From the NCBI GenBank assembly GCA_037146775.1, contig JBAWWL010000002.1:198554-262553 (forward strand): a stretch of 64,000 nt of DNA, read 5' to 3'. This stretch comes from Candidatus Omnitrophota bacterium (GTDB lineage Bacteria; Omnitrophota; Gorgyraeia; Duberdicusellales; 4484-171). The notes under the pieces are model-generated. The model was not told where the DNA came from. It did no database searches and worked only from the letters and a program-made list of their open reading frames with translations. This document shows, in pieces, positions 1-55,637 of the stretch (the first letter of the stretch is position 1; each line of letters begins with the position of its first letter). A program made the position numbers and the translations under genes.

Positions 1-1
1 T

Positions 2-1375
2 AAAGTATTAAAACAAAAAGAAAAAGATTATATTTTCCTGGAATTAACCCGCTCAATCTGCCCAGTATGTAAGAAAACTATTGATGCGCAGATCCGGGTT
101 AGGGATGAGAAAGTATTCATGTTCAAACGCTGTTTTGAGCATGGCGAATTTGAATCGCTTATTTCTTCGGATATCAATCTATACAAACACAGTCTCTCTT
201 TTAACAAGCCGGGAAAAGCCCCGCAGGAATACGGAACCGAGGTAGCCCGGGGTTGTCCGGATGATTGCGGAATCTGCCCTGACCATCAGCAACATACTTG
301 CATTGCGCTTTTAGAGATAACCGACGGCTGTAACCTGTGTTGTGGCAGTTGCTATGCTAAAGCTACCGGTAGTGCATTTCTTGATCTTACGACCATAGAT
401 TTTATGCTCAACCAATACGTTCGTTATGAAGGGCATCCCGAAGTTTTACAGATCAGCGGAGGAGAACCAACGCTGCATCCGCAATTATTCAATATAATCG
501 AATTAGCTCATTCCAAAAAAATCCGCCACGTGATGGTTAACACTAATGGTATTAGATTAGCCGAGGATGAAAGTTTTGCCAGAGAACTCTCGCACCAAGA
601 TATCGAATTGTATCTTCAGTTTGATGGTTTTGCGCCGAAGGCCTATGAGTTTTTAAGAGGCAGTACGGCAGTCTTACCGTTAAAACAAAAGGCTTTAGAG
701 GTTATCGCCAAATACAATATCCCTGCGACCTTGGTGGTTACTTTGGTCAAAGATCTCAATGACCAGCAGATAGGCCAGGTTATTGATTTCGCCATAAAAA
801 ACAGGTTTGTAAAAGGAGTAACTTTTCAGCCGATTATCTACCTAAACGATAGCGTGAGATTTGATCCTATGGATAGATTGACACTTCCCGATATCGTTAA
901 GGCTATAGAAAGCCAAACCAAATCTTTATTTAAGATATCTGATTTTATCCCTTTGCCTTGCTCGTATCCTACCTGCTGCAGCCTTACCTATGCTTTTCTT
1001 AAAGACGGCGCCGTGACTCCCATAACCAGAAAGGTTGATGTCGAGAAATACCTGGATTATTTCTGTAACAGAATCATTACCAGTCCCGCAGCTTTGCTTA
1101 GGAAGTCTTTAGAAAATTTGTGGTCTGCTTCGGCTACGCTCAACGCGCAACAGGTATTAAAGGATTTTACTTGTGTGTGCGGCTTGCCTTTTACGCCGGG
1201 CATATTGGACGAACTAAAGAACAATGTGTTCAGAATAGTGGTTAAACCTTTTATGGACGCGTATACTTTTGATTATAAAAGAGCGATGAAATGCTGTGTC
1301 CATGTGTTGCGTCCTAACGGCAAGCTGATTCCTTTCTGTGTGTATAACAATATATATCGCACTAAAGGGCTATGA
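2..1375 (+). CDS. Radical SAM enzyme with an N-terminal Cys-rich (zinc-ribbon/ferredoxin-like) region; 5' end truncated by the window edge
   Basis: The frame is open from position 2. CxxxCxxC is present (C-NLC-C-GS-C in ITDGCNLCCGSCYA), as is GGEPTLHP. The N-terminus has CPVC...C..H and CPDDCGICPDHQQHTC cysteine clusters. It overlaps the next gene by 4 bp. Confidence 0.6.
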   Translation, partial: KVLKQKEKDYIFLELTRSICPVCKKTIDAQIRVRDEKVFMFKRCFEHGEFESLISSDINLYKHSLSFNKPGKAPQEYGTEVARGCPDDCGICPDHQQHTCIALLEITDGCNLCCGSCYAKATGSAFLDLTTIDFMLNQYVRYEGHPEVLQISGGEPTLHPQLFNIIELAHSKKIRHVMVNTNGIRLAEDESFARELSHQDIELYLQFDGFAPKAYEFLRGSTAVLPLKQKALEVIAKYNIPATLVVTLVKDLNDQQIGQVIDFAIKNRFVKGVTFQPIIYLNDSVRFDPMDRLTLPDIVKAIESQTKSLFKISDFIPLPCSYPTCCSLTYAFLKDGAVTPITRKVDVEKYLDYFCNRIITSPAALLRKSLENLWSASATLNAQQVLKDFTCVCGLPFTPGILDELKNNVFRIVVKPFMDAYTFDYKRAMKCCVHVLRPNGKLIPFCVYNNIYRTKGL

Positions 1376-2241
1376 ACAAAATGCTTATAAGTTTTTTTGA
1401 ATTCTTCGTTGTCTTAAGCGTTATGTTTTTGATATTTTCTTTTCTTTCTCACCTTATCATGAGAAAAATATCTTTTAGGGAGTGGTTTTTGTTCTTACAC
1501 AACAAAATCTATGGGTTAGGGAATGTGGCGTCATCGCTTATCGGAGCAGTGACTCCTTTTTGTGTCTGCACCACTATACCGATATTCACCGGCATGATAC
1601 AAATGGGAATTAAAACTAATATCGCAATATCGTTTTTATTTTCTTCCCCGCTGATTAGTGTGTCGGCGGCAGTGCTCCTGTATTTCTTGTTTGGGATAAA
1701 ATTTTCTGTTTATTACATTGTTGCCGCGCTTATTTTCTCCGTGGTTGGGGGTTTACTGGTAGGCTGGTTGCGGCTCGATGACGCAATAAGCGAAGAATTA
1801 AAAAACAATACTGTTACCGGGCCAAAAAACGCCAATATATATCGTAACGCCGCCAGCTCTTCTTTTCGTTTATTTAGAGACCTTTTTATTCCTTTGGCGC
1901 TGGGAGCAATTATTGCGGGGTTCATCCATAATTATGTACCGGTTAAAGCGATCGAGGCTATAAACGCGTATCCTTTATGGATAACTATTCCTTTAGTAGC
2001 TTGTATTGGTTTTCCCATATACTCCAACATTATGGTGTTGGCGCCGATTTGTTTTGCATTAGCCAACAAAGGAATGAATCAAGGCGCAGTTATGACTTTT
2101 ATGATGTCGGGAGCAGGAATCAGTTTTCCTACCGTGATAGTATTAAGAAGTTTGTTGAAGACCAGGCTTTTTATATATTATGTGTTTTACACATTCATTT
2201 CTTATTGCATGATCGGTTTTATTTTTAACCTATTACGATAA
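1372..2241 (+). CDS. DUF318 / ArsP-family permease
   Basis: Polytopic membrane protein with a TPFCVCTTIP motif resembling the conserved TPFcSC motif of ArsP/DUF318 permeases. ATGA start overlap with the upstream radical SAM gene. Confidence 0.5.
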   Translation: MNKMLISFFEFFVVLSVMFLIFSFLSHLIMRKISFREWFLFLHNKIYGLGNVASSLIGAVTPFCVCTTIPIFTGMIQMGIKTNIAISFLFSSPLISVSAAVLLYFLFGIKFSVYYIVAALIFSVVGGLLVGWLRLDDAISEELKNNTVTGPKNANIYRNAASSSFRLFRDLFIPLALGAIIAGFIHNYVPVKAIEAINAYPLWITIPLVACIGFPIYSNIMVLAPICFALANKGMNQGAVMTFMMSGAGISFPTVIVLRSLLKTRLFIYYVFYTFISYCMIGFIFNLLR

Positions 2242-2243
2242 TT

Positions 2244-2783
2244 ATGTTTGAAGCATTGAAAAGATTATTTGCCCGGAAATACGAAAAGCCCAAAGGGATA
2301 CTTTTGTACGCAAGTGTGCAGGAAGTTATCCAGACCCAGAAAATGTTAGAGACCGAAGGGTTTCAGGTAAGGCTGGTGGCGCCGCCTCCGGAAGTAAGGC
2401 TGGGCTGTGATTTGGCTATTGAGTTTAATCTTATTGAGCAGGAGGCCATAGAAACCACAATAAAAAATGAAAAAAGCACTCCCTACAGAATAGTTTCAAC
2501 GAAAGAAATGCTTCCGGATATTCTTAAGCGTTCTTTAATCGTCGACATTGACGGGTATGTGATGTGTAAAGCCGGGAATATGAAGATTACCATAGATAAA
2601 AGAGAACATCGAATCGTAAATATTTCCGGAGGCGGCTGTCCCGATATCCCTTATGTCGCCGAACAGCTGCATAACCAAAGGATTGAAGAGGCGAAGAATC
2701 CCATTGAAATAGGAAATAGCCTTTGTTCGTATCTGCTGCAGATAGCTTTTGACTCGTTAAAGAAAAAGGTGATAAGCAAATGA
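2244..2783 (+). CDS. Hypothetical protein; the N-terminal ~90 aa resemble DUF3343 (small putative S/Se-carrier-like proteins found next to YedE/YeeE)
   Basis: Genomic context with a YeeE/YedE gene two genes downstream. Weak similarity judged by eye only. Confidence 0.25.
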   Translation: MFEALKRLFARKYEKPKGILLYASVQEVIQTQKMLETEGFQVRLVAPPPEVRLGCDLAIEFNLIEQEAIETTIKNEKSTPYRIVSTKEMLPDILKRSLIVDIDGYVMCKAGNMKITIDKREHRIVNISGGGCPDIPYVAEQLHNQRIEEAKNPIEIGNSLCSYLLQIAFDSLKKKVISK

Positions 2784-3634
2784 TTGTGCTAGTAGGCACG
2801 GTTCCCTATAAAACTGGTTTGTATGTGGGTAAGGCCGCTATCCAAGGCGGGGTTTTGCAGATAGGTAGCGGTTCTTTTTCTATTGAGCGAGGAACTGCGG
2901 CAATGGCAGCTTCGTGCGTGCAGGTGTGCAGTTTTTATAATACAGAGATGCCTTTATGTATTTTTGGAGGAGATATTTCCGACGGAAAAGGAACGGACTT
3001 GATGTTTCAAGAAGTAAATACCAATATCGATGCCTACAAGCCCGATCTGGTTACGCTGCATTATATGTTTCCGAAAGTTAAGTATGGTCAGCCGTTTATA
3101 AATAAAATTGAATCTTTGCAAAAAAAACCACAACTTATAGCTGACGCCGGCGGCATGTATTTGATGAAAACCATCAATAAGGCGCATTTTTTTGATGTGT
3201 TTACTCCGGATTGGGGAGAGTTGTATTTTTTAGCCGACGAATTTGCGCCGCACCCCTTATACGTAAGGAGCGAATTACTCGAGAAAAATGTTTCCTTGCA
3301 ATCTTTGGTGGATGCCGCTTACAAAAAGAATAATACTGCTAAAACCACTATCGTTAAGGGTGTCGTAGATCATCTGTATGCTGATAATATTAAAATAAAG
3401 GAGCTTTCCCAGCCCAACATCCCGGCAATGGAAGCGATAGGCGGTACCGGAGATACTATTACCGGTATGCTTTCTGCGTTAAGGTATATGGGATGCTCCG
3501 ACGCGGATTACAAGGCGCTTACGATAAATCGTCTTATTGGCGAAGAAATCAAATGTAGTCCGGCAACCCAAATAGCCGAATTTATAACAGCGATTCCGAA
3601 AGTTTTAGCTCAGTATGAAAAAAAGATATCTTAG
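2780..3634 (+). CDS. Hypothetical protein with a GGTGDTITGML motif reminiscent of YjeF_C / ribokinase-fold carbohydrate kinases
   Basis: AIGGTGDTITGMLSALRYMG resembles the GGsGDvLaG nucleotide-binding loop. 4-bp overlap with the upstream gene. Confidence 0.25.
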   Translation: MIVLVGTVPYKTGLYVGKAAIQGGVLQIGSGSFSIERGTAAMAASCVQVCSFYNTEMPLCIFGGDISDGKGTDLMFQEVNTNIDAYKPDLVTLHYMFPKVKYGQPFINKIESLQKKPQLIADAGGMYLMKTINKAHFFDVFTPDWGELYFLADEFAPHPLYVRSELLEKNVSLQSLVDAAYKKNNTAKTTIVKGVVDHLYADNIKIKELSQPNIPAMEAIGGTGDTITGMLSALRYMGCSDADYKALTINRLIGEEIKCSPATQIAEFITAIPKVLAQYEKKIS

Positions 3635-4736
3635 ACATTGGTCGTTTCTGGCTACAGGCCCGCTGCTTTCTTTTTTGCTTATTTTGTTTTGGTTCTTTAA
3701 TCAAAATTATTTATCGCAAACAAAAGGGCCTGTCGTGTTGCTGTTGGAAAATCCGCTCATAACCTTTGGCTTGATTATTTTTGGCGCTTTTGTCAGCGCT
3801 TTTATCTTTGGGGAATACAGTATTAAAACCCCGGTTACTTACGAGCCTTTGATTTTTTCATTCATAGGAGGAATATGGATGGGCTGCGGAGCGGTTATCG
3901 CGGCCATGTCTACTCATTCCATTGTGTTGTTTAATTTAGCGGGGATATTTAACCTCACGGCATTTATGATTACTAAAGGCTGGATCTATGCCGCGAGCAT
4001 GATTGTAGGAGGATTCGCAGGGTCAAAAGTATTTTCTTTCCTTATTTTGAAGACTGGCCATCTTAAAAAAGATTTTTTTATTCCGCCCGCATTGATGCTT
4101 AGAAAAAACCAAAAAATTATTTTCTTTGTATTGCTTGGTTTGTTTATTCTTTTTATTTCTGCTGTGGTTTTCTTCTCGGTGCTTACCGCCCAGGAGAAGG
4201 CAGGTTTCCTTTTCGCCGTTATACTGCTTTTTTTGTTCGGCATACTTGTTGAGCGAGGTACTATTTGTATGTCGAGCATGCTAAAAGAGTGGTTCCTCGC
4301 GCATTCTGCTTATGTCTGGCGCAGCGTATTATTTACTGTTATGTGTTTGGCGATTCTTTATCAGGTAGGGCTAAAATTATTTGCGTTTGAGCCGATACAA
4401 TTAGAAAGACATATCCAGAATGTAAGTTTACTCGTGGGAGGGTCTTTTCTTATGGGTTTCGGATTCATATTTGCCGATGGATGCTTCATCGGCAGTTTAT
4501 GGAAAGCCGGGCAGGGCAATATTATAAACATTGTTGGTATTCTGGGAACGTTAATAGGGATAGGGGCGTCAAAGATGGCCGCTAAATTTATCATCATCAA
4601 GCAGCCAGCCGTTCTCGGCCCACAAATTACCAACTATCTTAATATTATTATTCACCCTTTTGTGTTTATTGCCCTCTTGTGGGTTCTGGGCATATTATCG
4701 TTGATAATTTTTAGGCAGAAACACTATCGTTATTGA
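3615..4736 (+). CDS. YeeE/YedE-family (thiosulfate/sulfur-compound) transporter
   Basis: Two-repeat membrane protein with conserved Gly/Cys motifs (FIGGIWMGCGAVIAAMS and FIFADGCFIGSLWKAG), as in YeeE/YedE. Confidence 0.55.
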   Translation: MKKRYLRHWSFLATGPLLSFLLILFWFFNQNYLSQTKGPVVLLLENPLITFGLIIFGAFVSAFIFGEYSIKTPVTYEPLIFSFIGGIWMGCGAVIAAMSTHSIVLFNLAGIFNLTAFMITKGWIYAASMIVGGFAGSKVFSFLILKTGHLKKDFFIPPALMLRKNQKIIFFVLLGLFILFISAVVFFSVLTAQEKAGFLFAVILLFLFGILVERGTICMSSMLKEWFLAHSAYVWRSVLFTVMCLAILYQVGLKLFAFEPIQLERHIQNVSLLVGGSFLMGFGFIFADGCFIGSLWKAGQGNIINIVGILGTLIGIGASKMAAKFIIIKQPAVLGPQITNYLNIIIHPFVFIALLWVLGILSLIIFRQKHYRY

Positions 4737-4777
4737 ACTGCGTGTGATATCGTATTCTTATAGCAAGGAGGTTTGAA

Positions 4778-5521
4778 ATGATCGTTTCCGGACTTAAAGC
4801 TTTTCTGACAACGCTGGAGCACTTTTTATTAGCCGCCTGCCTTTATATTTTTGCCATAGTAACCACCGGTTTAGCGCTTTTCCCCAGCGTATTGTTCATA
4901 CATTACGTATGGACACACACTCTTGGCTATTATTTTATTGTGCGTTTATTGCTGATTTGCTTCAGTCTGGCGGCAGCTTATTTTGTATATGGTTTCAGCT
5001 TGATCTTAATAGTCGGTTTTTTAAGGACCGCGTTAAGGCTAAATCTCAAAGAAGGGGAGTATCATGTAACTTCAATGGGCATGATGAAATGGATGTTTGT
5101 TAACGCACTTTATATACTGGTAGCAATTACTTTTATGGATTTTATTCTCCTTACGCCTTTTGCGGCATTTTTCTTTCGCATTATGGGAGCCAAGGTTGGA
5201 CGCAACGTCCAAATCAATTCTAAAAATTGTGCAGATGTATCTTTACTTGAGATTGGCGACAATACCGTTATCGGCGGCCACGCCACAGTGATCTGTCATT
5301 CTTTTGAGCGTGGCAGGTTGATATTACGCAGAGTAAAGATTGGCAAAAATGTGGTTATAGGGCTAAACTCGGTAATTTTGCCTGGCGCCGATATCGGAGA
5401 CGGCTCCTTTATTACCGCAGGCGCGGTGCTGGGCAAAAATAAACAAGTTGAGCCGCATAGCGTTTATGCGGGAGTTCCTGCTGAATCGACAAAAGAAAGA
5501 AGAGAGCACGACAAACAATGA
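4778..5521 (+). CDS. Membrane-anchored hexapeptide-repeat (left-handed beta-helix) acyltransferase
   Basis: N-terminal TM helices followed by hexapeptide repeats (IGDNTVIGGHATV, IGKNVVIGLNSVI, IGDGSFITAGAVLG). Confidence 0.5.
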   Translation: MIVSGLKAFLTTLEHFLLAACLYIFAIVTTGLALFPSVLFIHYVWTHTLGYYFIVRLLLICFSLAAAYFVYGFSLILIVGFLRTALRLNLKEGEYHVTSMGMMKWMFVNALYILVAITFMDFILLTPFAAFFFRIMGAKVGRNVQINSKNCADVSLLEIGDNTVIGGHATVICHSFERGRLILRRVKIGKNVVIGLNSVILPGADIGDGSFITAGAVLGKNKQVEPHSVYAGVPAESTKERREHDKQ

Positions 5522-7230
5522 AAAAAAGAGTAAGTTTAAAAACCATCACTATTATTGACATCATGGAGGCCATAAATAAAAACTATGGCGATATTACTGC
5601 CGTGCAGATGAAAGAAAAAGACGGAACATTTAGAAAGATCTCTTATGTGGAATTAGGCAGGAGAACGGTTGACGTTTCTTCCCATCTTATTAAGTTGGGT
5701 ATAGGCAAGGGCGACAGGGTTGCAATATATTCAGAGAACAGGCCGGAATGGCCTGTGGCTTTTTTTGGAGCTATTTCTGCCGCGGCCATAGTTGTGCCTA
5801 TAGATAGCAAATTGAGCGAAGCCGAAGTGCGGTTTATTTTAAGCAATAGCCAGGCTAAGTGCATATTTGTTGGCGGAAAATATCTAAGCGTTATCGATAC
5901 CATAAAGACGGGCTTACCGGATTTAAAATATATCGTTACCTTAGATAGCAGTAGCCGGCAAGATATCATTAAGTTGGAAGATTTAAAGCTGGTAAGCGAA
6001 GAAAACAAGAATCGTCCTTTGCACGAAGAGGATACCGCGCTCATAATCTATACCTCCGGTACTACCGGCGTAGCCAAAGGGGTTGAACTTACGTACCGCA
6101 ATCTTATGTTTCAGGTGAGGTGTTTGAGCGAAATAATAGATTACAAGATTCAGGACCAATTTCTTTCCATTTTACCCTTAAACCACACGCTCGAATTAAC
6201 CGGCGGGCTCATCGCTCCGTTGTATGCCGGAGGATGTATCACGTATTGCGATAGCCTAAAGCCCACACATATGCTTTCTTTGATGCAGCACACGCATACC
6301 GTTATGATGATTTGTGTGCCCCTGGTCATCAAAATGCTGCACGAGGGTATTATGGGCCAGATTGCCAAGATGTCTTCTTATAAACAGAAAATATTTAACC
6401 GGTTGTTATGTGTGTCCAAATGGTTATTAAAATATAATATCAGGGTAGGACGTATATTATTTTTTGGGCTGCACAAGCAATTTGGCGGACGGCTGCGTGG
6501 TTTTGTAAGCGGAGGTGCTCCGTTAGATAAAGAAGTCGAGATAAATTTTAACGCCCTGGGTTTCCGGGTATTGCAGGGCTATGGGCTTACCGAAACATCG
6601 CCGGTCATAGCAGTCAACACATACAAAGTTTACAGGTTTGGTTCCGTAGGAAAGCCTTTGCCGGGCGCCCAGGTAAGTATAGTAAAAGAAAATAGTACGT
6701 CGCAGGAAGGCGAAATTATCACCAAGGGAGATCATATAATGAAGGGTTATTTTCAAAATGCCGACAAAACCGTCGAAGTTATCAAAGACGGATGGCTGCA
6801 TACCGGAGATATCGGCCACTTGGATAGAGACGGTTTTCTTTATATAACAGGCAGAATAAGAAATCTTATTGTGCTTGGTGCGGGCAAGAAAGTATTTCCG
6901 GAAGAAGTCGAGCAGGTGATGTCGCAAAGCCCGTTCATAAAAGAAATCTGTGTTTTGAGCAGGATTGCTACGAAAGGTTTACGCAAGGGATGTGAGGAGG
7001 TTTACGCTGTTATCGTCCCAAATCTGGATGCATTTGGAAAACTTGAGCGTGCGAATGAGCAGACAATCAAGGAGGCAATCGCCCAAGAGCTTTCCCGTCT
7101 TGGCGGAAATTTAGCAGAATACAAGCGAATAATGGATTTCGATGTGTGGGATGGGGAGTTGCCAAAAACAGCCACCAAGAAGGTTAAAAGACAAGTTTTG
7201 CTCGAAATGATTAACAAATCCGTAACTTGA
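5518..7230 (+). CDS. AMP-dependent acyl-CoA synthetase/ligase (long-chain fatty-acid-CoA ligase-like)
   Basis: AMP-binding signature IYTSGTTGVAKGV, a GYGLTETS motif and a C-terminal lid domain. 4-bp overlap with the upstream gene. Confidence 0.8.
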   Translation: MKKRVSLKTITIIDIMEAINKNYGDITAVQMKEKDGTFRKISYVELGRRTVDVSSHLIKLGIGKGDRVAIYSENRPEWPVAFFGAISAAAIVVPIDSKLSEAEVRFILSNSQAKCIFVGGKYLSVIDTIKTGLPDLKYIVTLDSSSRQDIIKLEDLKLVSEENKNRPLHEEDTALIIYTSGTTGVAKGVELTYRNLMFQVRCLSEIIDYKIQDQFLSILPLNHTLELTGGLIAPLYAGGCITYCDSLKPTHMLSLMQHTHTVMMICVPLVIKMLHEGIMGQIAKMSSYKQKIFNRLLCVSKWLLKYNIRVGRILFFGLHKQFGGRLRGFVSGGAPLDKEVEINFNALGFRVLQGYGLTETSPVIAVNTYKVYRFGSVGKPLPGAQVSIVKENSTSQEGEIITKGDHIMKGYFQNADKTVEVIKDGWLHTGDIGHLDRDGFLYITGRIRNLIVLGAGKKVFPEEVEQVMSQSPFIKEICVLSRIATKGLRKGCEEVYAVIVPNLDAFGKLERANEQTIKEAIAQELSRLGGNLAEYKRIMDFDVWDGELPKTATKKVKRQVLLEMINKSVT

Positions 7231-20427: not shown

Positions 20428-21159
20428 ATGGATATGCCAGAAGATCAAGCTCATCTAGGCGGTTATTTTAAAGGGGATCCGAATGCGTGGTGTCCGGATC
20501 TTTGGAATCTTGTGCATGATAAGCTGCATGTGAAATCGGTTTTGGATGTCGGCTGTGGCATAGGACGCTCTACGGCTTATTTTAAAAAGATAGGTTGTGA
20601 AGTGTTGGGGGTTGACGGCAGCCCCGAAGCCAAGCACGAAAGTCTGATCCCGGAGTTTCATATAGTCCATGATTTTACCAAAGGCCCCTTTATCCCGCCC
20701 AAAAAATATGACTTGATTTGGTCCTGCGAATTTGTAGAACACGTGGAAGAGCCATGTCTGGATAATATCCTTCAAACATTTGGCAGTAGTAACAAATATA
20801 TAATGATGACGCATGCGCAGCCGGGGCAAATGGGTTATCATCATGTGAATTGTCGGTCCGGAGTGTATTGGATAACAAAATTATATAAAATCGGATTTAA
20901 GATCGATTTTTGTTTAACAAAGGAAGCCAGGAAGGTGGCCGGCCATGGTTATTTTAAAAAAGACGGTTTAGTCTTTATCAGGCAGCAAGGCGCGACGGGA
21001 TCAGTTCCTGTGGTTTTTTATGTGTCAGTATTATTGCACCAGTGTATCTGGTATATGCAATATATTATTAGTTTCTGTAAAGAAAAAGGGTTCCCGGAGA
21101 CAATAAGAAAATTATACGGTAGGTTGTTGAGGGTAGGTTTTCTATGTTCCCAAAAGTAG
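20428..21159 (+). CDS. Class I SAM-dependent methyltransferase
   Basis: Motif I VLDVGCGIGRST and an acidic residue after beta-2 (VLGVDGS). Confidence 0.55.
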   Translation: MDMPEDQAHLGGYFKGDPNAWCPDLWNLVHDKLHVKSVLDVGCGIGRSTAYFKKIGCEVLGVDGSPEAKHESLIPEFHIVHDFTKGPFIPPKKYDLIWSCEFVEHVEEPCLDNILQTFGSSNKYIMMTHAQPGQMGYHHVNCRSGVYWITKLYKIGFKIDFCLTKEARKVAGHGYFKKDGLVFIRQQGATGSVPVVFYVSVLLHQCIWYMQYIISFCKEKGFPETIRKLYGRLLRVGFLCSQK

Positions 21160-22823
21160 CGGTTATCATCCTTAATTATAACGGTAAAGACGATACCTTG
21201 GAATGCTTGGAGTCCGTTGATAAGATCGATTATCCCCATCTTGAAGTGGTTGTCGCGGATAACGGTTCGGCCGATGGATCCCTCGAGGCTATCCGCCATA
21301 AATTTCCGCAAACAAAAAACATTGCTCATAACGTAAATTTAGGATATGCCGAAGGAAATAACCGTGCAATTCTTGATGCGGTGTCACGGGGCGCCGAGTA
21401 CATTCTTCTTTTAAATAATGATGTCGTTGTCGATGCGGGAATCGTCGGTTATTTGATGCACGCGATAGAAAAGTTGCCTCAAGCAGCGTTTCTAAGCCCG
21501 AAAATATATTATTTTGCAGAGCCAAATAGAATTTGGTTTGCCGGTGGGTACTGGTCATCTAGGTGCGCTAATATTATTTCATCGGGATACCAACAAATAG
21601 ATGATTGCGTCAGTTGGGAGGAAACCAAAGAAACGGAATTTGTATTTGGCTGCGCCATGTTTTTTAAGGCCGATATTATCAAACATATTAATTTAATGTC
21701 TTCGGAATATTTCTTGGTGTGGGAGGAAAGCGATTGGTGCATGCGGGCCAGAAAGTTAGGATATAAGTGTTATATTGTGCCGGCGGCCAAAGCCTGGCAC
21801 AAGATTGAAGCTTCTTTCCGGAAGGCATCCGATGGGCTCTTACGGTATTATTTTTGGAATAGAAATCGGCTGCTTTGGATGGAACGAAATATTTCATGGT
21901 CAGAAAGACTATATGTTTTATCGGTAATTGTTATACCCCAAATATTTAAAAATTTCGTTGGACTGTTTGACTTTCAAGCCTGGTCGCTGAGGCGGCTACG
22001 TTGTAAGGTTTATATGTGTGCGGTACATGACTATGTATTTCGCAGATTCGGCGATGCTCCGGGTGAGCTTTACAAGATGCTAAAAAACTTTATTGCCCAG
22101 AAGCCCGAAACTTTGATTATTATAACACCTACATATCCGCGTGCTAATCGGATTGCTTGTCTCGATCGATGTGCAAATGTTTTTAAAAAAGTTGATGAAT
22201 TATTATGGATTGTTATCGAGGACGGAGCTGCCTTGAATGAGGAAGTTACGCAGCTGCTTAAACAAAGCGGCATCAACCATATATATCTGCATTTTGGTCC
22301 GACGCGTTGTTGGGGCAATGAACAACGTAATCATGCTCTGGAATATATCAGAGATAATAACATAAAAGGTATTGTGTACCTGGCCGATGACGATAACTAT
22401 TATGATCCTCGTTTGTTTACCGAGATTAGAAAAACAAAAAAAGTTTCCATTTTTCCTGTCGGTAATCTCGGTCCCAATGGTATAGAACGGCCGGTTATCT
22501 CGGGCGGAAAAATAATTGGCTGGGATGCCCATTGGCTAGACCGTAAGTTCCCCGTTGATATGGCTGGTTTTGCATTTAACGCTGATATACTGCAAGGTTT
22601 AGAAGGACAACCTTGGAATTATTGTCCAGCAGATAAAAGACGCGGCGGGGAAAGTGAGTTCCTGGAGCGGCTGGTTGCTACAAGCGATGAATTGGAGGTG
22701 CTGTGCGACTCATGTACAAGGTGCTATGCGTGGCATAATTTACCGCTTGACGTGAATCCACTATGGGCTGTTATTCATGCGCGATTATGGAAATTTCTGA
22801 AGCGCATGATTTCTAAGATGTGA
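21144..22823 (+). CDS. Bidomain glycosyltransferase: N-terminal GT2 (GT-A) fused to a C-terminal GT43-like (beta-1,3-glucuronyltransferase-like) domain
   Basis: GT2 signature: VAVIILNYNGKDDTLECLESV..VVVADNGSADGS. The C-terminal half has IIITPTYPRANR, WIVIEDG and VYLADDDNYYDPRLFTEIR, which closely mirror the GT43 motifs (I.VVTPTY.R, WIVVED, FADDDNTYS..LF). Confidence 0.6.
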   Translation: MFPKVAVIILNYNGKDDTLECLESVDKIDYPHLEVVVADNGSADGSLEAIRHKFPQTKNIAHNVNLGYAEGNNRAILDAVSRGAEYILLLNNDVVVDAGIVGYLMHAIEKLPQAAFLSPKIYYFAEPNRIWFAGGYWSSRCANIISSGYQQIDDCVSWEETKETEFVFGCAMFFKADIIKHINLMSSEYFLVWEESDWCMRARKLGYKCYIVPAAKAWHKIEASFRKASDGLLRYYFWNRNRLLWMERNISWSERLYVLSVIVIPQIFKNFVGLFDFQAWSLRRLRCKVYMCAVHDYVFRRFGDAPGELYKMLKNFIAQKPETLIIITPTYPRANRIACLDRCANVFKKVDELLWIVIEDGAALNEEVTQLLKQSGINHIYLHFGPTRCWGNEQRNHALEYIRDNNIKGIVYLADDDNYYDPRLFTEIRKTKKVSIFPVGNLGPNGIERPVISGGKIIGWDAHWLDRKFPVDMAGFAFNADILQGLEGQPWNYCPADKRRGGESEFLERLVATSDELEVLCDSCTRCYAWHNLPLDVNPLWAVIHARLWKFLKRMISKM

Positions 22824-22904
22824 AAATGGATAGCAGGACGAAACCACGCGAAAAAATCATAAACGATACCGTCTTTGTTAAATTATATACAAAAATAGAT
22901 TGAA

Positions 22905-24309
22905 ATGGCAAGAATATTATTGATTTCAGTATATGATATTAATGCAGAGGGGTTGAGAAGCCTATCTGCTCTGTTGAAGAGTAAAGGACATCAACCGTAT
23001 ATCGTATTCCTTAAGCGATACGGAAAAAGCGGCTCTTTTGTCTTTAATTGGCGAGGTCAAGCCTGAGCTTATCGGTATTTCAGTAACAACGCCGTTAAGA
23101 AAAAAGGCAGTCGAAATATCGCTATTGATAAAGAACATATATGCTATACCGATTGTTTGGGGAGGTCCAGATCCAACTATAAGCGCACAAGATTGCTTAG
23201 CGTATTGTGACTTCGTATGTGTCGGTGAGGGAGAAAAAACTATTATTGATATTGCTTCGGCGCTTGATGTAAAGGATGACATCAAGAAAGTGAATAATAT
23301 CGCGTATATGGCAGCTGATAGATGTGTTCGAAATCCTCTGAATCCTTTGGTAATCGATTTAGATAGTCTTCCTTTTAAAGATATAGATAAGGATAATAAG
23401 TTTTTGATAGAAGATAATATGTTGATAAGAAATTTCCATGAAGTAAGCAACACATTAAATTATAAATATCATCTGATAGGTGCGCGAGGGTGCCCCTATG
23501 GCTGTTCGTATTGTTGCGAAGATTTCTATAAAAAATTGTACGATAAACAAGTTTTTTTAAGAAGAAGGTCTGTTTCTCACATAATACAAGAATTAGAAGA
23601 AGCAAAGATAATACGCTACAAATTTGTTCAATTTGAAGATGAAGTTTTTTCTTATGACTATGATTGGTTATTGGAATTTAAAGATAGGTATAAAAGCGAG
23701 ATTAACCTTCCATTCACATGTTATATTTATCCAAATAAAAATATCGAAAGGCAATTGAAAATTTTGAAAGAAACAGGTCTCACTCGCACATGCTTGGCAT
23801 TGCAATCAGGTAGTGGTAGGATAAACAAACAAATATTTAATAGAGTTTTCGATAGAGAACTTTTTATAAAAACAGCTAGGTTGCTGAAATCAATGGATAT
23901 AGAGTATTACGTTGATGTTATAACGTTTAATCCTTTCGAGACAGAGGAAGACCTGCGGTTAACCTTGGACGTTCTCAATGAACTGCCGAGGCCATTCTGG
24001 TTGTGTATTAACAAGCTATATGTTCTCAAAGGTACAAAAATATATACTTTGCTTAAAGATTATAAAAAAACAATAAAGAGTGCGATTCCGGAAAGACTTT
24101 TTACCTACTACAGCCTTCTATTTTGGCGGACAACAGAGTATCATAAAAACCTGGTCAAGTTTATATATGCGATAAGAATATTTAAGTATTTTCCAGCTTT
24201 GTTTAATTATACATCAAAAATATATTCCTGTATTCGTAATCCCAGAGATATTCCTAAAAGAATAAAACGAAAGTTCATCAAAGGGGTCAGACCTTCAGAT
24301 GTCAGATAA
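22905..24309 (+). pseudogene. B12-binding radical SAM enzyme interrupted by a +1 frameshift in a T-run (~23036-23039), with its C-terminus replaced by a REP-like repeat
   Basis: The ATG at 22905 encodes MARILLISVYDINAEGLRSLSALLKSKGHQPYIVFL..., a typical B12-binding-domain start, and stops at 23055. Frame +1 from TTG 23038 continues with ..KPELIGISVTT.. and the radical SAM CPYGCSYC motif. The last 9 codons (KGVRPSDVR*) are encoded by the 30-nt repeat at 24280-24309. Confidence 0.5.
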
Positions 24310-24313
24310 ATTG
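24280..24313 (+). repeat. REP-like 30-nt element copy (AAAGGGGTCAGACCTTCAGATGTCAGATAAATTG) immediately upstream of the transposase gene
   Basis: Exact match to the core at 19436-19472. Lies 32 bp upstream of the transposase (RAYT-like) start. Confidence 0.6.
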
Positions 24314-24344
24314 ACAAAGCATTAACAAATGTTATCATACGTTC

Positions 24345-25289
24345 ATGGCAAGACCTTATAGAATCCAAGGTGAAAATTGTCTTTACCATATAACCAGCCG
24401 CGGCGATGACCGCAAGAAAATTTTTATCAGCGAAGTAGACTACACAAAATTCCTCGAATATTTAAAGTCAGCTCAAGCAAAATTCAAATTTTATCTTTAC
24501 GCCTATTGTTTGATGGACAATCATTACCATCTTTTCCTGGAAACCGCTCAGGCTAATCTTTCAAGGATAATGCAATATATCAATACTTCCTATACTGTGT
24601 ATTACAACGTAAAACGTAAGAAATGCGGGCATTTGTTTCAGGGGAGGTATAAATCTATCCTGGTGGAGGCAGACAGTTATTTTCTCGAATTAACCCGCTA
24701 CATTCACTTAAATCCAGTCAGGGCTAAAATAGTTACTGATCCGGAAGCATACAGGTGGTCGAGCTATAACGAATATATCAAAAAAACAAAAGATAACCGT
24801 ATAGACAAAGAACAGCTACGCAAATATTATAAGCTATCTTGTGGTAGCTATAAAACATTTATACTTGATGGCATAAATAAAGAAGAATCGCCTCTTAGTA
24901 ACTTATATGCCGGCTGCATCCTGGGAAAAGAAAAATTCATCAAAGATACGCTTGCTGCTTTAAAAATTACTGTCGAGAGCAAAGATTTTTCTCATAAGAA
25001 GACACTCAGTGGTGTAGATCCAAAAATAATAATTCAAGAAGTTGCTGACTATTACAAAAAAGAGCCCGAGGTGTTATATAAAGCCGCAAAGAAACCTGTG
25101 TTGGCAAAAAAGATAGCAGTATATTTATTGAAAAAATTAACCGGTTTAACCAATAAAGAAATAGGTGATATGTTTGGTATAGGATATTCTGGGGTAAGTT
25201 GGATTGCCCAGAACGTTGAGGGAATAATAAGCCGAGACACTAAGGTAAAAGAAGACATCGCGAGACTTATCTTACGTCTGAAGGCCTGA
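24345..25289 (+). CDS. HUH (Y1) transposase of the IS200/IS605-TnpA/RAYT type with a C-terminal DnaA-domain-IV-like HTH
   Basis: HUH motif in CLMDNHYHLFLE. The N-terminal MARPYRIQGENCLYHITSRG is typical of TnpA_IS200/RAYT. The C-terminal KIAVYLLKKLTGLTNKEIGDMFGIGYSGVS resembles the DnaA C-terminal HTH. Confidence 0.65.
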   Translation: MARPYRIQGENCLYHITSRGDDRKKIFISEVDYTKFLEYLKSAQAKFKFYLYAYCLMDNHYHLFLETAQANLSRIMQYINTSYTVYYNVKRKKCGHLFQGRYKSILVEADSYFLELTRYIHLNPVRAKIVTDPEAYRWSSYNEYIKKTKDNRIDKEQLRKYYKLSCGSYKTFILDGINKEESPLSNLYAGCILGKEKFIKDTLAALKITVESKDFSHKKTLSGVDPKIIIQEVADYYKKEPEVLYKAAKKPVLAKKIAVYLLKKLTGLTNKEIGDMFGIGYSGVSWIAQNVEGIISRDTKVKEDIARLILRLKA

Positions 25290-25321
25290 TCCCGCGGGTG
25301 CAAACTTTTCAATAACAACTC

Positions 25322-26305
25322 ATGTCTAAAAGAATTAAGAATTTATTAAAAAAAATCATAAGGAGCAATCCTGCGGTATTTAATTTTTATAGTTCCATCT
25401 ATCGTAAAATAAACCCCTTACAAGTTGAGTATGGATGGGGAGCATTGCCAAAATTAGTAATGATTGAACCTACAAACGTTTGTAATTTTTCTTGCGTTAT
25501 GTGTCCAGGCAAATTAATGAAACGCAAGCGCGGTTTTATGGAATTAAAACTATTCAAGTTGGTCCTTGATAAGGTCCAGGAAGCAGGAATTTCTCACATT
25601 ATCCTTCATACTGTAGGAGAGCCCTTAATGCACCCAAAATTTTTAGAAATGCTGAAGCTTTCTGTTTTGTGTCCTACGATTAAAAAAGTAGAATTCTACA
25701 CAAACGGGTCATTATTGGATGAAACATATATGAAAGAGATATTGAATATGAAGATATGCAGAGTTTATGTTTCATTCAGCGGCTGGGATAAGAAAAGTTA
25801 CGAAACGAGATATTGCGGCGGAGTGTTTGAAGATATAGTTAAGAAGCTAACAATGTTTAATCAAATGATACGTGCTTACGGGGCACCCTTGCAAACACTT
25901 ATGATAAGCGGGCTGGTGGATGAAGAATGGGAAAAAGAGAAAGTAATAATTTTTTTAAAAAATATCGGCTTGGAAACCAGTCAAGTCAGTCTTTTGCATC
26001 CTTTCAATTGGATTGGTTTTATTTTGAACAGCTATAACTGTAGCATTGACGGGCACGACAATACTAAAAGTAAACAGCGAGCCTGTTATTTTATCCGTGA
26101 TAACCCCGGCATTTTGCATGATGGTAAAGTAACAGCATGTGGTTGCCATGATATTAATGGCGAGCTTCTTATCGGCGATATTCAAAAACAAAGTATATCG
26201 GAAATCAGGAAAGGAGCATATTTTAAAGAAATTGTATGTAAACTTAAGCAAGGGAATTTGGGCGGTCTGGTTTGTCACAAGTGTGACGCTGTTGAAAGAT
26301 GGTGA
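25322..26305 (+). CDS. Radical SAM enzyme with a C-terminal SPASM/twitch-like Cys cluster
   Basis: CNFSCVMC (CxxxCxxC). Glycine-rich GEPLMHP. C-terminal cysteines ACGCHD...CHKCD. Confidence 0.7.
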   Translation: MSKRIKNLLKKIIRSNPAVFNFYSSIYRKINPLQVEYGWGALPKLVMIEPTNVCNFSCVMCPGKLMKRKRGFMELKLFKLVLDKVQEAGISHIILHTVGEPLMHPKFLEMLKLSVLCPTIKKVEFYTNGSLLDETYMKEILNMKICRVYVSFSGWDKKSYETRYCGGVFEDIVKKLTMFNQMIRAYGAPLQTLMISGLVDEEWEKEKVIIFLKNIGLETSQVSLLHPFNWIGFILNSYNCSIDGHDNTKSKQRACYFIRDNPGILHDGKVTACGCHDINGELLIGDIQKQSISEIRKGAYFKEIVCKLKQGNLGGLVCHKCDAVERW

Positions 26306-26461
26306 TAGCCAGGGTTAGCGGAATTATGGGTAAGCAAATATTAAAGGGATTTATGTATCCCGAAAATCTACCGCTTTTGATATACCGATGGATGTGAATC
26401 TGTGGAGGATTACAAGGGTTCGACGTAGCTGGCCACCAGAGAGATTGAAAAGGAGAAGGCG

Positions 26462-27967
26462 ATGAAAGTAACATTAATTTACCCAAATATAAATAATATT
26501 CCGAGTTATAGTTTTGGATTGGGCATTATTGCCGCTTACTTGAAGCAAAACGGCCACAAGGTCCAGGGGTTCTATATAGATTCAGAGACAGAAGAAGATA
26601 TCGACTTGGTGAATATTGAAAAACAGATAAAGAAATTCAATCCAGGGTTAATAGGATTTTCATCTGTCTCCAACCAATATAACTTTGTAAAACTGATCGC
26701 AAGGCACTTAAAGCGTAGTGGCATAAATGCGAAGATTATCGTTGGGGGGGCTCATCCCACGATTGCTCCCGAGGAAGTTATAAAAGAAAATTTTATTGAT
26801 ATGGTTTGTGTGGGCGAAGGAGAAGACGCAATCCTCGAATTAGTTAATAAATTAGACAAAAAAGAGGATATCTCGAATGTAAGAAATATTTGGTTAAAGA
26901 AGGGTGATAGAGTATTAAGAAATGGCTTAAGGCCTTTGATTAAAGATCTAGGGAGGCTGCCTTTCGCCGACAGAAATTTATTTGATTTCAGAAATATTTT
27001 AGAAAAAAGGAGAGGTTGGGTCAATATTTTAGTTAGCCGCGGTTGCCCATTTCAGTGCAGTTATTGTATTAACCATTATCTTGGAAAGATAAATAAAGAA
27101 AAATTCACAATTAGGATGAGGCCGATTGATCATGTTTTGTCAGAAATTGCTGAGATTGAGAAAGGGCAGGAAATAAAAATGGTTAACTTTGCCGACGATG
27201 CCTTTACGGTCAACAAAGAATGGACATTGAAATTTTGTAAAGAATATCCTAAAAAGTTTAAAAAATACCCTTTTGCGTGTAATGCGAGGACAACCAACTT
27301 TGATGAAACATTAGCATGTGCTCTGAAAAAAGCCGGATGTGCTGAAGTTAAGATGGGTCTTGAGTCCGGTTCAGGAAGGGTAAGAGAGGAGATTTTGAAT
27401 AGATCTATGACGAATGGACAGATTGAAAAAGCATTTAGTGTAGCAAAAAAATTTGGGATAAGAACATGGGCATTCAATATGATTGGAATACCTACGGAAA
27501 CAAAAAATGAATTATTAGAAACAATTAAGTTAAATGCTAAGATAAGACCCTACATATTATGGTGCTCCATACTATTTCCATATAAAGGTACAAAGCTTTA
27601 TGAGCGGTGTCTTAAAGAAGGGATAATTGATAAAAATAAACAATTTAAATATACTTCCTATTTTAACGGAACAATATTAAAATTGAAAGATTTCACCGAG
27701 GCCGATATTGTGAGATATAAAACAATGTTTAGGTGGTATGTTGATGCCTACAGTAATATTGAGGTTGCGCCCCTTTACAAAGGGCTTGTAAGTTTGTTCG
27801 AGGCCTTACCAAGTAAAATGTGGATGACTAAAGAAGCCCAGAAATTATTCAAGGAGCTAGATGGTAATGTCGATGATTTATTAAAAATATTAAAAAAAGA
27901 ACATTATAGTTCAAGGGGTCATCTTTATTTAAATTTTTCTGCGGCAACGAATTGGGAGTTGCCCTAG
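26462..27967 (+). CDS. B12-binding radical SAM enzyme (class B radical SAM family)
   Basis: N-terminal B12-binding domain (MKVTLIYPN..GLGIIAAYLKQNGHKV..GFSSVSNQ). Radical SAM VSRGCPFQCSYC. Confidence 0.75.
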   Translation: MKVTLIYPNINNIPSYSFGLGIIAAYLKQNGHKVQGFYIDSETEEDIDLVNIEKQIKKFNPGLIGFSSVSNQYNFVKLIARHLKRSGINAKIIVGGAHPTIAPEEVIKENFIDMVCVGEGEDAILELVNKLDKKEDISNVRNIWLKKGDRVLRNGLRPLIKDLGRLPFADRNLFDFRNILEKRRGWVNILVSRGCPFQCSYCINHYLGKINKEKFTIRMRPIDHVLSEIAEIEKGQEIKMVNFADDAFTVNKEWTLKFCKEYPKKFKKYPFACNARTTNFDETLACALKKAGCAEVKMGLESGSGRVREEILNRSMTNGQIEKAFSVAKKFGIRTWAFNMIGIPTETKNELLETIKLNAKIRPYILWCSILFPYKGTKLYERCLKEGIIDKNKQFKYTSYFNGTILKLKDFTEADIVRYKTMFRWYVDAYSNIEVAPLYKGLVSLFEALPSKMWMTKEAQKLFKELDGNVDDLLKILKKEHYSSRGHLYLNFSAATNWELP

Positions 27968-28173
27968 TTTTCTGTCGTTTAGAGACCAAGATTTTCTTGT
28001 TGAAATAGAAGTAGATGCAGTGGGTATAATCTAAAAGAATCGAAATCTTGCAAAAATGTGCTTAAGAAAGTCTGTATCCGGGCATCCGGCCGGTGATTGA
28101 TTGTAATGGCGCAAGATGATTAGTCTATCTGCAGCCGATTGCAAAAAATAAAGTTATAAAAGAAAAAAGGGAG

Positions 28174-46534: not shown

Positions 46535-46600
46535 TTTATTATTTTGTAATTTGAATTTTGTTATTTGTCATTACCAAAGAGGAGGATGAACGTGGAAAAG

Positions 46601-47764
46601 ATGAAGTTAAGTAAATGTTTTATCGTAGTGGCTGTTTTATTATTGCTCGTTGCGCCTTATGCCCGTGCAGAATTTATGGTTAAGCCTGTTAGGGGCACTC
46701 TGCTGGTTTCTGAAGGCATGCTTTATAATAGTAACCCTGGCTATGCTGATGTTGGTGCCCGCGAACATGACTGGGCAAACCAGATGTCTGCAGGGTTATC
46801 TCTTGAAGTTCCTTTTGGCCAGATCCATAAATACACCCTTAATTCAAACACCACATGGATTAAATATTTTACCAATCATAAGTTTAACCAAGTTAATAAT
46901 AATCTTACTCATTCTGTGGATTTTACTTTTAACCGCTGGGCGTTGAATATTCATCAGAATTTTGATGCTAGCTCTGTGCCTGATACTAACGAAATGCCTA
47001 TTGTTTCAAAAGAACTTCTTCGTAAACGTATAAATGCTCCTGGTTTTGCTGTCAGGGGAGATTTAGGTAAACTTAAATTATCCGGCGGTTTTGATTACCA
47101 AGATTATGATACAAACGATGAATATAAAATATTACAGAGAAAAACTTATACACCTTACCTAGAAGGTGCCATGCAGATAACCCCGCTTCTTGATGGTTTT
47201 ATGCGTTATACCTATACTCGCACAATTCGAGCTGAGAATGTGTTAAACAATAGCCATGGTAATGATGTCAAGGTTGGTTTACGTGGAAACTTAACCCCTT
47301 ATCTTACCGGTGAAGTAGGGATTGGCTATGACTGGACTGATTTTAGTCAATCTGGTACTACCGGTGATCAAAGTAATTATCATGGTCTTGTTTACTCAGG
47401 AGGCCTTACTAATCGCCTGTCAAAACACACCACACAAAAGATTTCTTTCTCGCTTGAACCGGAACAAGGTTACAGCGATGCTAACTACTATAAGTGTTGG
47501 ACCACAGAATATATGCTTTCCCATACTTTAAATACCAAAGTTGACGTGAACGCTTCTGTGGGGTATATTCTTAGCAATGAGTCAGGACATGCTTACGATA
47601 TGGAAAAGTCAAATATTTGGCAGTTTGGCACCGGCTTTAATTATCATTTGGCCAAAAATTCAGATTTAGTAGTGGGTTATAATTTTAGTGATAAAAGTTC
47701 TAACAGGCCCGGTAAAAATTACAAACAACACGCTCTCTCTACGAGCGTAAATTACCGATTCTAA
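46601..47764 (+). CDS. Outer-membrane beta-barrel protein
   Basis: Signal peptide, alternating amphipathic beta-strand pattern and a C-terminal ...VNYRF with terminal Phe. Start at ATG 46601 or GTG 46592, after AGGAGG. Confidence 0.5.
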   Translation: MKLSKCFIVVAVLLLLVAPYARAEFMVKPVRGTLLVSEGMLYNSNPGYADVGAREHDWANQMSAGLSLEVPFGQIHKYTLNSNTTWIKYFTNHKFNQVNNNLTHSVDFTFNRWALNIHQNFDASSVPDTNEMPIVSKELLRKRINAPGFAVRGDLGKLKLSGGFDYQDYDTNDEYKILQRKTYTPYLEGAMQITPLLDGFMRYTYTRTIRAENVLNNSHGNDVKVGLRGNLTPYLTGEVGIGYDWTDFSQSGTTGDQSNYHGLVYSGGLTNRLSKHTTQKISFSLEPEQGYSDANYYKCWTTEYMLSHTLNTKVDVNASVGYILSNESGHAYDMEKSNIWQFGTGFNYHLAKNSDLVVGYNFSDKSSNRPGKNYKQHALSTSVNYRF

Positions 47765-47851
47765 ACCCGATTCGGAGTATATGCAGAAAACGCCACTGGA
47801 TATGTTTGTGGCATCTACTTGTCTTCGTTTCGATTAAACTAATAAAAACTA

Positions 47852-48529: not shown

Positions 48530-48551
48530 TTATATTTAATAAAAATTTAAT

Positions 48552-50825: not shown

Positions 50826-50830
50826 ACTGT

Positions 50831-53533: not shown

Positions 53534-53542
53534 CAAGATATA

Positions 53543-53566
53543 CAATGACAAATTACAAAGCTCAAA
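53543..53566 (+). repeat. Left arm of a ~24-bp inverted repeat bracketing 4HB gene 1 (partner at ~54016-54039)
   Basis: AATGACAAATTACAAAGCTCAAAT versus the reverse complement of downstream ATTTGAATTTTGTACTTTGTCATT (21/24). Additional ATGACAA copies upstream and TTTGTCAT copies downstream. Confidence 0.5.
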
Positions 53567-53615
53567 TGACAAATAATATCAGACTAACAAAAGTCACTTA
53601 ATAACAAAGGTCAAA

Positions 53616-53987: not shown

Positions 53988-54127
53988 TTTTTCCTTTCGT
54001 ACTTTTTTGTTATTTGAATTTTGTACTTTGTCATTAACCAATATTTGACATTTGAATTTTGTAATTTGTTCTTAGTTCATTTGTCCTTTGTGCTTTGTCA
54101 TTTGTCATTTTAACCGTAGGTTAACCC

Positions 54128-55519: not shown

Positions 55520-55602
55520 CTATTTACCCATATAAACCCTGTCTTATTTCCGACGTGGATTGTATTGACGCATTGTGATATGTTATGATATAATTAAAAC
55601 TT

Positions 55603-55616: not shown

Positions 55617-55637
55617 AAAACTAAAAATATAAGTTAA

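Follow-up and report, generated by a model that had tools for sequence, protein, structure and literature searches.

The stretch of DNA analysed here, 64,000 nucleotides from contig JBAWWL010000002.1 of a Candidatus Omnitrophota genome (hereafter the window), contains a gene for a 559-residue protein in which a glycosyltransferase family 2 (GT2) domain is followed, in the same reading frame, by a GT43 domain. Animal GT43 enzymes initiate glycosaminoglycan chains and form the HNK-1 epitope; those of plants act in xylan synthesis. An earlier note, made from the letters of the window, had proposed this domain assignment, and it is correct: the C-terminal half is a true GT43 domain, and the gene is a fusion in a sparsely distributed bacterial GT43 clade. 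The fusion is real, old and single-copy.

Identity and fold of the GT43 domain

The C-terminal half matches the Pfam GT43 model PF03360 over residues 344–531 (E = 7.5e-52, 176.6 bits against a gathering cutoff of 27, profile positions 2–203 of 207). The three motifs from which the assignment had been proposed, IIITPTYPR (residues 325–333, nucleotides 22116–22142), WIVIEDG (residues 355–361, nucleotides 22206–22226) and VYLADDDNYYDPRLFTEIR (residues 411–429, nucleotides 22374–22430), are all present. They match, column by column, TPTYxR, W(L/I)(L/V)VED and (Y/F)FADDDNTYS..LF.EMR of the human glucuronyltransferases GlcAT-S, GlcAT-P and GlcAT-I, a likeness that, on this alignment, lies far beyond chance. 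A phmmer search of the PDB sequences recovered the same three human enzymes, matching residues 323–538 (GlcAT-S, 1.7e-39; GlcAT-P, 2.5e-29; GlcAT-I, ~7e-25).

We built AlphaFold2 (AF2) models of the two domains separately. The model of residues 320–559, built on 63 homologues, has a pLDDT of 96.4, and its top ten Foldseek matches in the PDB are all human GlcAT-S, -P or -I (E ~9e-25 to 5e-21, template modelling score [TM-score] 0.78–0.81, 32–38% identity). No other GT-A family scored better; the next, SpsA/GT2, follows at an E value of 2e-8 and a TM-score of 0.55. A viral fold library gave generic GT-A matches only (E ~1e-9, TM-score ~0.55), with no sign of a viral GT43 intermediary.

The human enzymes (B3GAT2, B3GAT1 and B3GAT3, respectively; PDB entries 2d0j, 1v82–84, 1fgg, 1kws and 3cu0) thus share the fold of the bacterial domain (TM-score ~0.8) at 34–38% identity. 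To compare functional residues, we used a HMMER alignment to 3cu0 (residue number = chain index + 54, verified on DDD194–196) together with an alignment to the hidden Markov model of the family. All 16 mapped functional positions of GlcAT-I are identical in the bacterial domain. They include the UDP-binding TPTY (T328-P329-T330-Y331), E359 and D360 (D113 of GlcAT-I), R395 (R161), the metal-binding D415–D417, the acceptor-galactose contacts E448 (E227), W464 (W243), R467 (R247) and D472 (D252), the putative catalytic base E503, and H531, the counterpart of the donor-specifying His that we take to be His308.

Conservation of these positions extends to bacterial relatives: 12 of the 16 are at least 94% conserved across 69 bacterial homologues. 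The position of E503 is invariant (69/69), the DDD motif is kept in 68–69 of the 69, and a His occupies the position of H531 in 66. The less conserved positions are the Pro of TPTY (37/69), the position of Y84 (54/69) and that of R161 (58 with Arg, 10 with Lys).

Having Glu as the base, where the Asp of the xED motif is usual, is a hallmark of GT43 (PMC7185993). In GlcAT-I, Arg277 is essential (PMC6567438), and one His and one Arg are reported to set UDP-glucuronic acid (UDP-GlcA) specificity (Ouzzine 2002, as cited in PMC6567438). Arg277 lies at −4 from the base; in the bacterial domain R499 and R500 lie at −4 and −3 from E503.

The GT2 domain and the domain junction

The N-terminal half matches two GT2 models well above their cutoffs over residues 3–228 (PF00535, 1.6e-19, 70.9 bits, cutoff 23.3; PF13641, 4e-11, 43.8 bits, cutoff 27). 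On the bidomain protein NCBIfam models gave only sub-threshold GT2 matches, and phmmer against the PDB gave weak GT2 matches only (GlfT2, K4CP) for this half. It is 37–74% identical to stand-alone GT2 proteins of ~315 residues from Omnitrophota, cyanobacteria and others, and carries all 31 family-invariant residues, including D39, NND93 (the "DxD" equivalent), E194/D197 and W218-H219-K220; D39, D93, E194 and D197 are invariant in an alignment of 54 family members. A profile of this family, searched against the PDB, best matched the galactofuranosyltransferase 9dtp (1.8e-15), with Mycobacterium tuberculosis GlfT2 (4fix) at 1.2e-11. GlfT2 was also the best Foldseek fit to the AF2 model (pLDDT 95.7; TM-score 0.68–0.72, root-mean-square deviation 5–6 Å). 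These galactofuranosyltransferases, themselves GT2 enzymes, are the best solved relatives, matching in the GT-A core and the C-terminal helical region, but at 14–18% identity only and with an N-terminal β-barrel domain that is absent here. Judged by its conserved residues and predicted fold, the GT2 half is intact and GlfT2-like, a likeness that does not fix the transferred sugar.

In the domain models the last GT2 helix (residues 307–319) leads directly into strand β1 of GT43. GT2 homologues align up to residue ~321 and stand-alone GT43 proteins from residue ~322, so the two domains are joined without a linker. Within the GT2 C-terminal helical region, a hydrophobic helix (residues 252–273; Kyte–Doolittle maximum 1.7 over 19 residues) is a candidate membrane-association element. 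The protein ends in a helix (residues 539–558) that has no counterpart in the human catalytic domains, is found in the ~250-residue class of bacterial stand-alone GT43 proteins, and is a possible membrane-surface anchor. We saw no true N-terminal transmembrane segment or signal peptide in the 559 residues. Eukaryotic GT43 enzymes typically have a type II membrane layout (short cytoplasmic tail, transmembrane segment, stem, lumenal catalytic domain), which does not define the family. The bacterial protein departs from this layout: its GT43 domain starts at residue 320, after GT2, with neither N-terminal anchor nor stem, and there is no Golgi context.

A decayed relative and the age of the fusion

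The identical protein is recorded in an NCBI Candidatus Omnitrophota metagenome-assembled genome (MAG), on a contig of 328 kb, and in a Logan assembly. The closest relative is on an independent JGI metagenome contig (L005), with a GT2 domain 74% identical to that of the window and, directly upstream, a methyltransferase 67% identical to the one that precedes the fusion in the window. GT43 sequence continues there in the frame of GT2, through the same in-frame junction, and has decayed: codons 320 and 323 are now TAG (AAG>TAG, GAA>TAG), a 1-nt deletion follows, and invariant motifs have been lost (WIVIEDG>FLIVARGG, TPTYPR>TATYRA). Between the two loci, Nei–Gojobori ω is 0.10 for GT2, 0.10 for the methyltransferase and 0.34 for the frame-restored GT43 remnant (dS is saturated and the values are rough); dN of the remnant is 2.5 times higher. 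The GT43 half of L005 is a pseudogene, and its GT2 domain and methyltransferase are under purifying selection.

Because the in-frame junction is shared, this comparison of sequences places the fusion before the split of the two lineages, with GT43 lost later in that of L005. Since GT2 has remained under selection after the decay of GT43, GT2 does not depend on GT43. The pair forms a natural experiment on the coupling of the two activities.

The upstream methyltransferase is linked to the glycosyltransferase by gene order, kept in L005, and by a 16-nt overlap of its stop with the glycosyltransferase start. Because of this overlap the methyltransferase is probably co-translated with the glycosyltransferase gene and part of the same module. 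A methyltransferase–GT2 fusion (P0056) lends weak Rosetta-stone support only, its methyltransferase having no BLAST-detectable relation to that of the window. Scans for promoters and terminators performed no better than on shuffled controls and leave the operon undefined.

A metagenome scan with the junction-spanning peptide, which used exact-peptide patterns of low sensitivity, found no further copies of the exact fusion. The same domain order does occur in a 491-residue protein on a Logan metagenome contig rich in GT4 and GT2 genes (P0082), the GT43 half of which is 51% identical to that of the window. The GT2 halves share only 25% identity, a sign that P0082 arose by a fusion of its own.

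GT43 domains in other bacteria

A survey of 2015 found GT43 restricted to eukaryotes (Taujale and Yin, PMC4449007), and our literature searches found no later report of a bacterial member, although CAZy may list some. The label "GT43" in papers on phage TET and DNA glycosylation (PMC8256090; bioRxiv 2023.12.21.572611) denotes a glycosyltransferase from contig 43 and not the CAZy family, and is irrelevant here.

A word-index search with the GT43 half found at least 190 GT43 clusters at E <=1e-5, nearly all of them stand-alone proteins of 210–260 residues. Named clusters come from Omnitrophota, Ca. Scalindua and Luteolibacter yonseiensis, and two (P0133 and P0191) from the same MAG as the fusion. 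An exhaustive phmmer search covered 1.84 billion representatives and returned 1684 matches at E <=1e-3, of which 784 reached <=1e-10 and 103 reached <=1e-30. A pattern-limited scan of 185,579 species-representative genomes found 17 loci, all in MAGs (8 Omnitrophota, 2 Planctomycetota, 5 Alphaproteobacteria, 2 Bryobacterales, 1 Nitrospirales). Overall, bacterial GT43 domains occur in Omnitrophota, Planctomycetota, Verrucomicrobiota, Alphaproteobacteria and Acidobacteriota. The rarity expected by the earlier note therefore holds for genomes and not for metagenomes: the family is sparse in bacteria and not unique to the window. Stand-alone proteins such as P0121, P0122, P0133, Ca. Scalindua P0131 and L. 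yonseiensis P0205 are 44–63% identical over the whole domain, carry the same invariant residues and lie in surface-glycan loci; as separate proteins of 210–260 residues, none is fused to a GT2 domain of the type seen here.

In a neighbour-joining tree, sequences of prokaryotic architecture, together with 15 unplaced ones, split from the animal and chytrid group with 89% bootstrap support. The GT43 domain of the window falls on the prokaryotic side, nested among bacterial stand-alone proteins, with inner nodes poorly supported. The nearest eukaryotic relatives are from a chytrid (Physocladia), animal GlcAT-S/P-like proteins and a dinoflagellate transcript, not the plant xylan enzymes. One 525-residue protein (P0245), considered as a plant IRX14-type member, was rejected, being from the chytrid Physocladia and annotated as GlcAT-like.

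The fusion and the ~190 clusters constitute a real bacterial branch of GT43, detectable with the existing Pfam model and of predicted function, against the survey's conclusion that there are no prokaryotic members (PMC4449007). With every mapped catalytic and substrate-contact residue intact in the protein of the window, this branch could shed light on how the eukaryotic enzymes arose. Its small, soluble, non-Golgi proteins may also be useful for structural and enzymatic work and for glyco-engineering of GlcA-capped glycans.

Across 19 bacterial GT43 loci, the neighbours include GT2 (11 times), GT4 (8 times), UDP-galactopyranose mutase (GLF; 4 times) and epimerases (4 times). The locus of P0133 holds GT4, AsnB, methyltransferase and GT47-like genes. 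The closest stand-alone relative on a long contig (P0122, 61% identity) follows a Wza/Wzc/Wzy_C block and shares an overlap of 14 nt with the Fringe/GT31-family gene upstream of it (L026 7100–8777). In animals, GlcAT-I (GT43) acts on a Gal-Gal acceptor made by B3GALT6, a GT31 enzyme; by analogy, the bacterial GT31/GT43 pair would mirror these consecutive linker steps.

GT43 genes adjoin GLF in hosts of the Bryobacterales, in an alphaproteobacterium and in the verrucomicrobium L. yonseiensis, the one cultured bacterium here that carries a GT43 gene (L020 6001–7718, L021 6001–7790, L022 6001–7836 and, for L. yonseiensis, L025 6947–8660). In all four GLF-adjacent proteins GV or GI replaces the Arg before the Glu base, where the protein of the window has RR. 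These proteins may form a functionally distinct, galactofuranose (Galf)-linked subclade, and because of this difference before the base, donor or acceptor may differ between bacterial subclades. The domain of the window is of the Arg-bearing type, which, as far as residues can indicate, fits GlcA.

GT43 is also found fused to DUF707, sulfotransferase, GT34, GT90, O-methyltransferase and Methyltransf_24 domains and, in a 988-residue protein, to GFO/IDH/MocA and FAD/ALO oxidase domains. The DUF707 fusions are metagenomic proteins of 549 and 557 residues (P0071 and P0247). The sulfotransferase fusion (P0089, PF13469, 534 residues, metagenome) recalls the pairing of GlcAT and HNK-1 sulfotransferase in animals. 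Two Omnitrophota glycan loci (L001 1–12554, GCA_964655305.1; L006 9117–16443) are rich in families usually thought eukaryotic: RGP/GT75 (UDP-arabinopyranose-mutase-like), Nucleotid_trans, DUF3405 and GLF, all beside an orthologue of the GT2 domain, and an Exostosin GT47/RXYLT1_C-like gene near a stand-alone GT43 paralogue.

A bolder scenario, which we regard as a long shot, would make the bacterial proteins an old prokaryotic lineage, centred on Omnitrophota and the PVC group (Planctomycetes, Verrucomicrobia, Chlamydiae), sister or ancestral to the eukaryotic glucuronyltransferases of the proteoglycan linker and the HNK-1 epitope. Cell surfaces would then bear eukaryote-like GlcA-β-1,3-Gal caps, some of them methylated (by the methyltransferase encoded here) or sulfated (by a fusion such as P0089), and the protein of the window would combine the galactosyltransferase and subsequent glucuronyltransferase linker steps in one chain.

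Predicted function

We lean, somewhat, towards a bifunctional glycosyltransferase that would make two inverting transfers in succession to a lipid-linked glycan of the cell surface, the second of them of β-GlcA, with the methyltransferase coupled to it. The analysis shows which domains are present, that their catalytic residues are intact, that the fusion is old and authentic and that the methyltransferase is linked to it; we infer which sugars are transferred, to which acceptor and in which order, and that the enzyme is non-processive. The enzyme would be soluble or membrane-peripheral and face the cytoplasm. In the first step, the GlfT2/WbbL-like GT2 domain would add a sugar, possibly of the galactose type, that serves as the next acceptor. 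In the second, the GT43 domain would bind a UDP-sugar through TPTY, R395 and D415–D417 with Mn2+, and E503 would act as base. Because H531 and R499/R500 are present, the transferred sugar would most likely be GlcA, in β linkage; the uronic-acid-containing product suggested in the earlier note is plausible on these grounds and on that of the Glu base. The predicted acceptor pocket (E448, W464, R467, D472) matches, residue for residue, that of human GlcAT-I, where the terminal Gal is held. The coupled methyltransferase would probably O-methylate the product. A role in glycan synthesis is consistent with the prevalence of GT2, GT4, GLF and epimerase genes beside bacterial GT43 genes, with the fusions to tailoring domains and with the export genes in the window (described below); the overlap of P0122 with a GT31-family gene in a Wza/Wzc/Wzy_C locus supports the logic of consecutive steps in unfused relatives.

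Several points weigh against this proposal. The export locus lies 24 kb from the glycosyltransferase gene, with unrelated genes between. The catalytic motif of UDP-glucose dehydrogenase was looked for in the window and in the GT43 loci examined, and found in none of them. The exact fusion is known from one instance only. To our knowledge no bacterial GT43 enzyme has been characterised, nor did the literature that we searched describe one, so that the proposed donor and acceptor are carried over from human enzymes at 34–38% identity. The match to Arg277 is weak evidence on the donor, because the loop that bears this residue differs even among the three human enzymes and so discriminates poorly.

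The alternative of an active GT43 domain that uses a sugar other than GlcA, such as xylose (as in the plant IRX9/IRX14-type enzymes), Galf or glucose, is doubtful. It arises because no gene resembling ugd is linked and bacterial GT43 enzymes are not known to have been assayed; the GLF-adjacent genes suggest that donors may vary within the family, and an orthologue of the GT2 domain (P0003) itself sits in a GLF locus. Against it, the window has no glf gene, the RR before the base resembles Arg277 of GlcAT-I rather than the GV or GI of the GLF-adjacent proteins, the counterpart of His308 is conserved, and the nearest eukaryotic relatives are GlcATs.

The earlier note had proposed a disaccharide repeat. 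Under this alternative the two domains would take turns on a [-X-GlcA-]n chain, as in Escherichia coli K4 chondroitin polymerase (K4CP), the Pasteurella heparosan and hyaluronan synthases and LARGE. Two intact GT-A catalytic domains do lie in one chain without a linker, GlfT2, to which the GT2 half is closest, is a processive polymerase, and K4CP and PmHS2 are among the weak matches. The known dual-domain polymerases (K4CP, Pasteurella PmHS2, mammalian LARGE1) likewise have two GT domains per chain, with glucuronyltransferase activity among them, but their GlcA-transferring domains belong to GT2, GT45 or GT49, not GT43, and resemble the GT43 domain of the window only as generic GT-A folds (E ~1e-7, TM-score ~0.5). 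The decayed relative speaks against a polymerase: the domains of such an enzyme would depend on each other, and in L005 GT2 and the methyltransferase have stayed under purifying selection after GT43 was lost, which argues against obligate cooperation and for a role of GT2 independent of GT43. In addition, most bacterial GT43 domains stand alone or are joined to tailoring enzymes, not to a polymerase domain as partner, and no dedicated exporter adjoins the gene. We consider alternating co-polymerisation rather unlikely.

That two separate genes were united by an assembly or sequencing error, or by eukaryotic contamination, is very improbable: a single exact copy is known and the neighbouring radical S-adenosylmethionine (SAM) gene has a homopolymer-associated frameshift, so that indel errors on the contig are possible, but an independent contig (L005) carries GT43 in the same frame after GT2, GC content is uniform (0.42–0.43) across methyltransferase, GT2 and GT43, the GT43 domain nests in a bacterial clade, and the surroundings of the gene are bacterial, a contig of 328 kb with Mla, Wza and Wzt genes.

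Genomic neighbourhood

Features of the gene and its immediate neighbours are collected in Table 1.

Table 1. Features mapped at the GT2–GT43 locus (nucleotide positions in the window; residue numbers of the bidomain protein)
Feature	Position	Strand	Basis and remarks
Class-I SAM methyltransferase, 243 residues	20428..21159	+	Pfam Methyltransf_23/11/25/12
Bidomain GT2–GT43 gene, complete	21144..22823	+	Uninterrupted open reading frame, 559 residues, ATG start
GT2 domain (1–319), GlfT2/WbbL-like subgroup	21144..22100	+	PF00535, PF13641, family alignment, AF2, Foldseek
Hydrophobic helix (252–273), LYVLSVIVIPQIFKNFVGL	21897..21962	+	Kyte–Doolittle, model helix H252-273; candidate membrane-association element
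Fusion junction (319–323, QKPET)	22098..22112	+	Ends of homologue alignments, secondary structure
GT43 domain (320–559; Pfam envelope 344–531)	22101..22823	+	PF03360, PDB matches, AF2, Foldseek
TPTY (328–331), UDP-binding, region of GlcAT-I Y84	22125..22136	+	Alignment
DDD (415–417), GlcAT-I D194–D196, Mn2+/diphosphate site	22386..22394	+	Alignment to 3cu0
E503, GlcAT-I E281, Glu catalytic base marking GT43	22650..22652	+	Alignment
H531, presumably GlcAT-I His308, end of acceptor subdomain, implicated in UDP-GlcA specificity	22734..22736	+	Alignment
C-terminal helix (539–558), PLWAVIHARLWKFLKRMISK	22758..22817	+	Helix 220–239 of GT43 domain model; possible membrane-surface anchor
B12-binding radical SAM gene, split over two frames	22905-24309		ATG 22905 (MARILLISVYDINAEGLRSL...), frameshift at A-run (GGAAAAAGCG) near 23020
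IS200-like Y1 transposase fused to DnaA_C helix-turn-helix domain	24345-25289

The earlier note had connected the fusion with neighbouring methyltransferase and radical SAM genes. The link to the methyltransferase stands; that to the radical SAM genes is doubtful. Downstream of the fusion lies a block of low GC content (~22.9–28 kb; 0.34–0.37, against 0.42–0.43 for methyltransferase, GT2 and GT43 and 0.41 for the window) with, in order, a B12-binding radical SAM gene, the IS200-like gene, a SPASM radical SAM gene and a second B12-binding radical SAM gene. The two B12-binding proteins are 32% identical to each other, and the block (~22900–28000) looks like an inserted island. The first of its genes is either a pseudogene or the product of a homopolymer sequencing error; in the open reading frame listed from 23038, the B12-binding domain is missing its first ~46 positions. 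Because of the differing GC content, the IS200-like gene and this frameshift, we did not count the radical SAM genes as part of the glycosyltransferase system.

A complete polysaccharide assembly and export set occupies 46.5–62 kb of the window (46565–61964). It comprises a BBP2_2 porin, Wza, a Wzz/tyrosine-kinase-like (Wzc-like) protein, a Wzy_C/O-antigen-ligase-TPR protein of 900 residues, a WbaP-type initiating transferase and Wzm, followed by two tandem Wzt ATPases, of which only the second has a Wzt_C glycan-cap-binding domain, and then Methyltransf_24 and FkbM methyltransferases. This composition points to an ABC-transporter pathway in which the chain end is capped by a methyl group.

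The window yielded no tRNA genes and no Rfam matches. At its start (1–7230), a radical SAM gene, an ArsP-type permease, a Se/S carrier-like protein and a Sulf_transp protein, followed by a hexapeptide acyltransferase and an AMP-binding enzyme, suggest a cluster for sulfur or selenium handling. Nearly all family-assigned open reading frames of at least 120 residues lie on the + strand over the 64 kb, and the cumulative GC skew climbs almost steadily.

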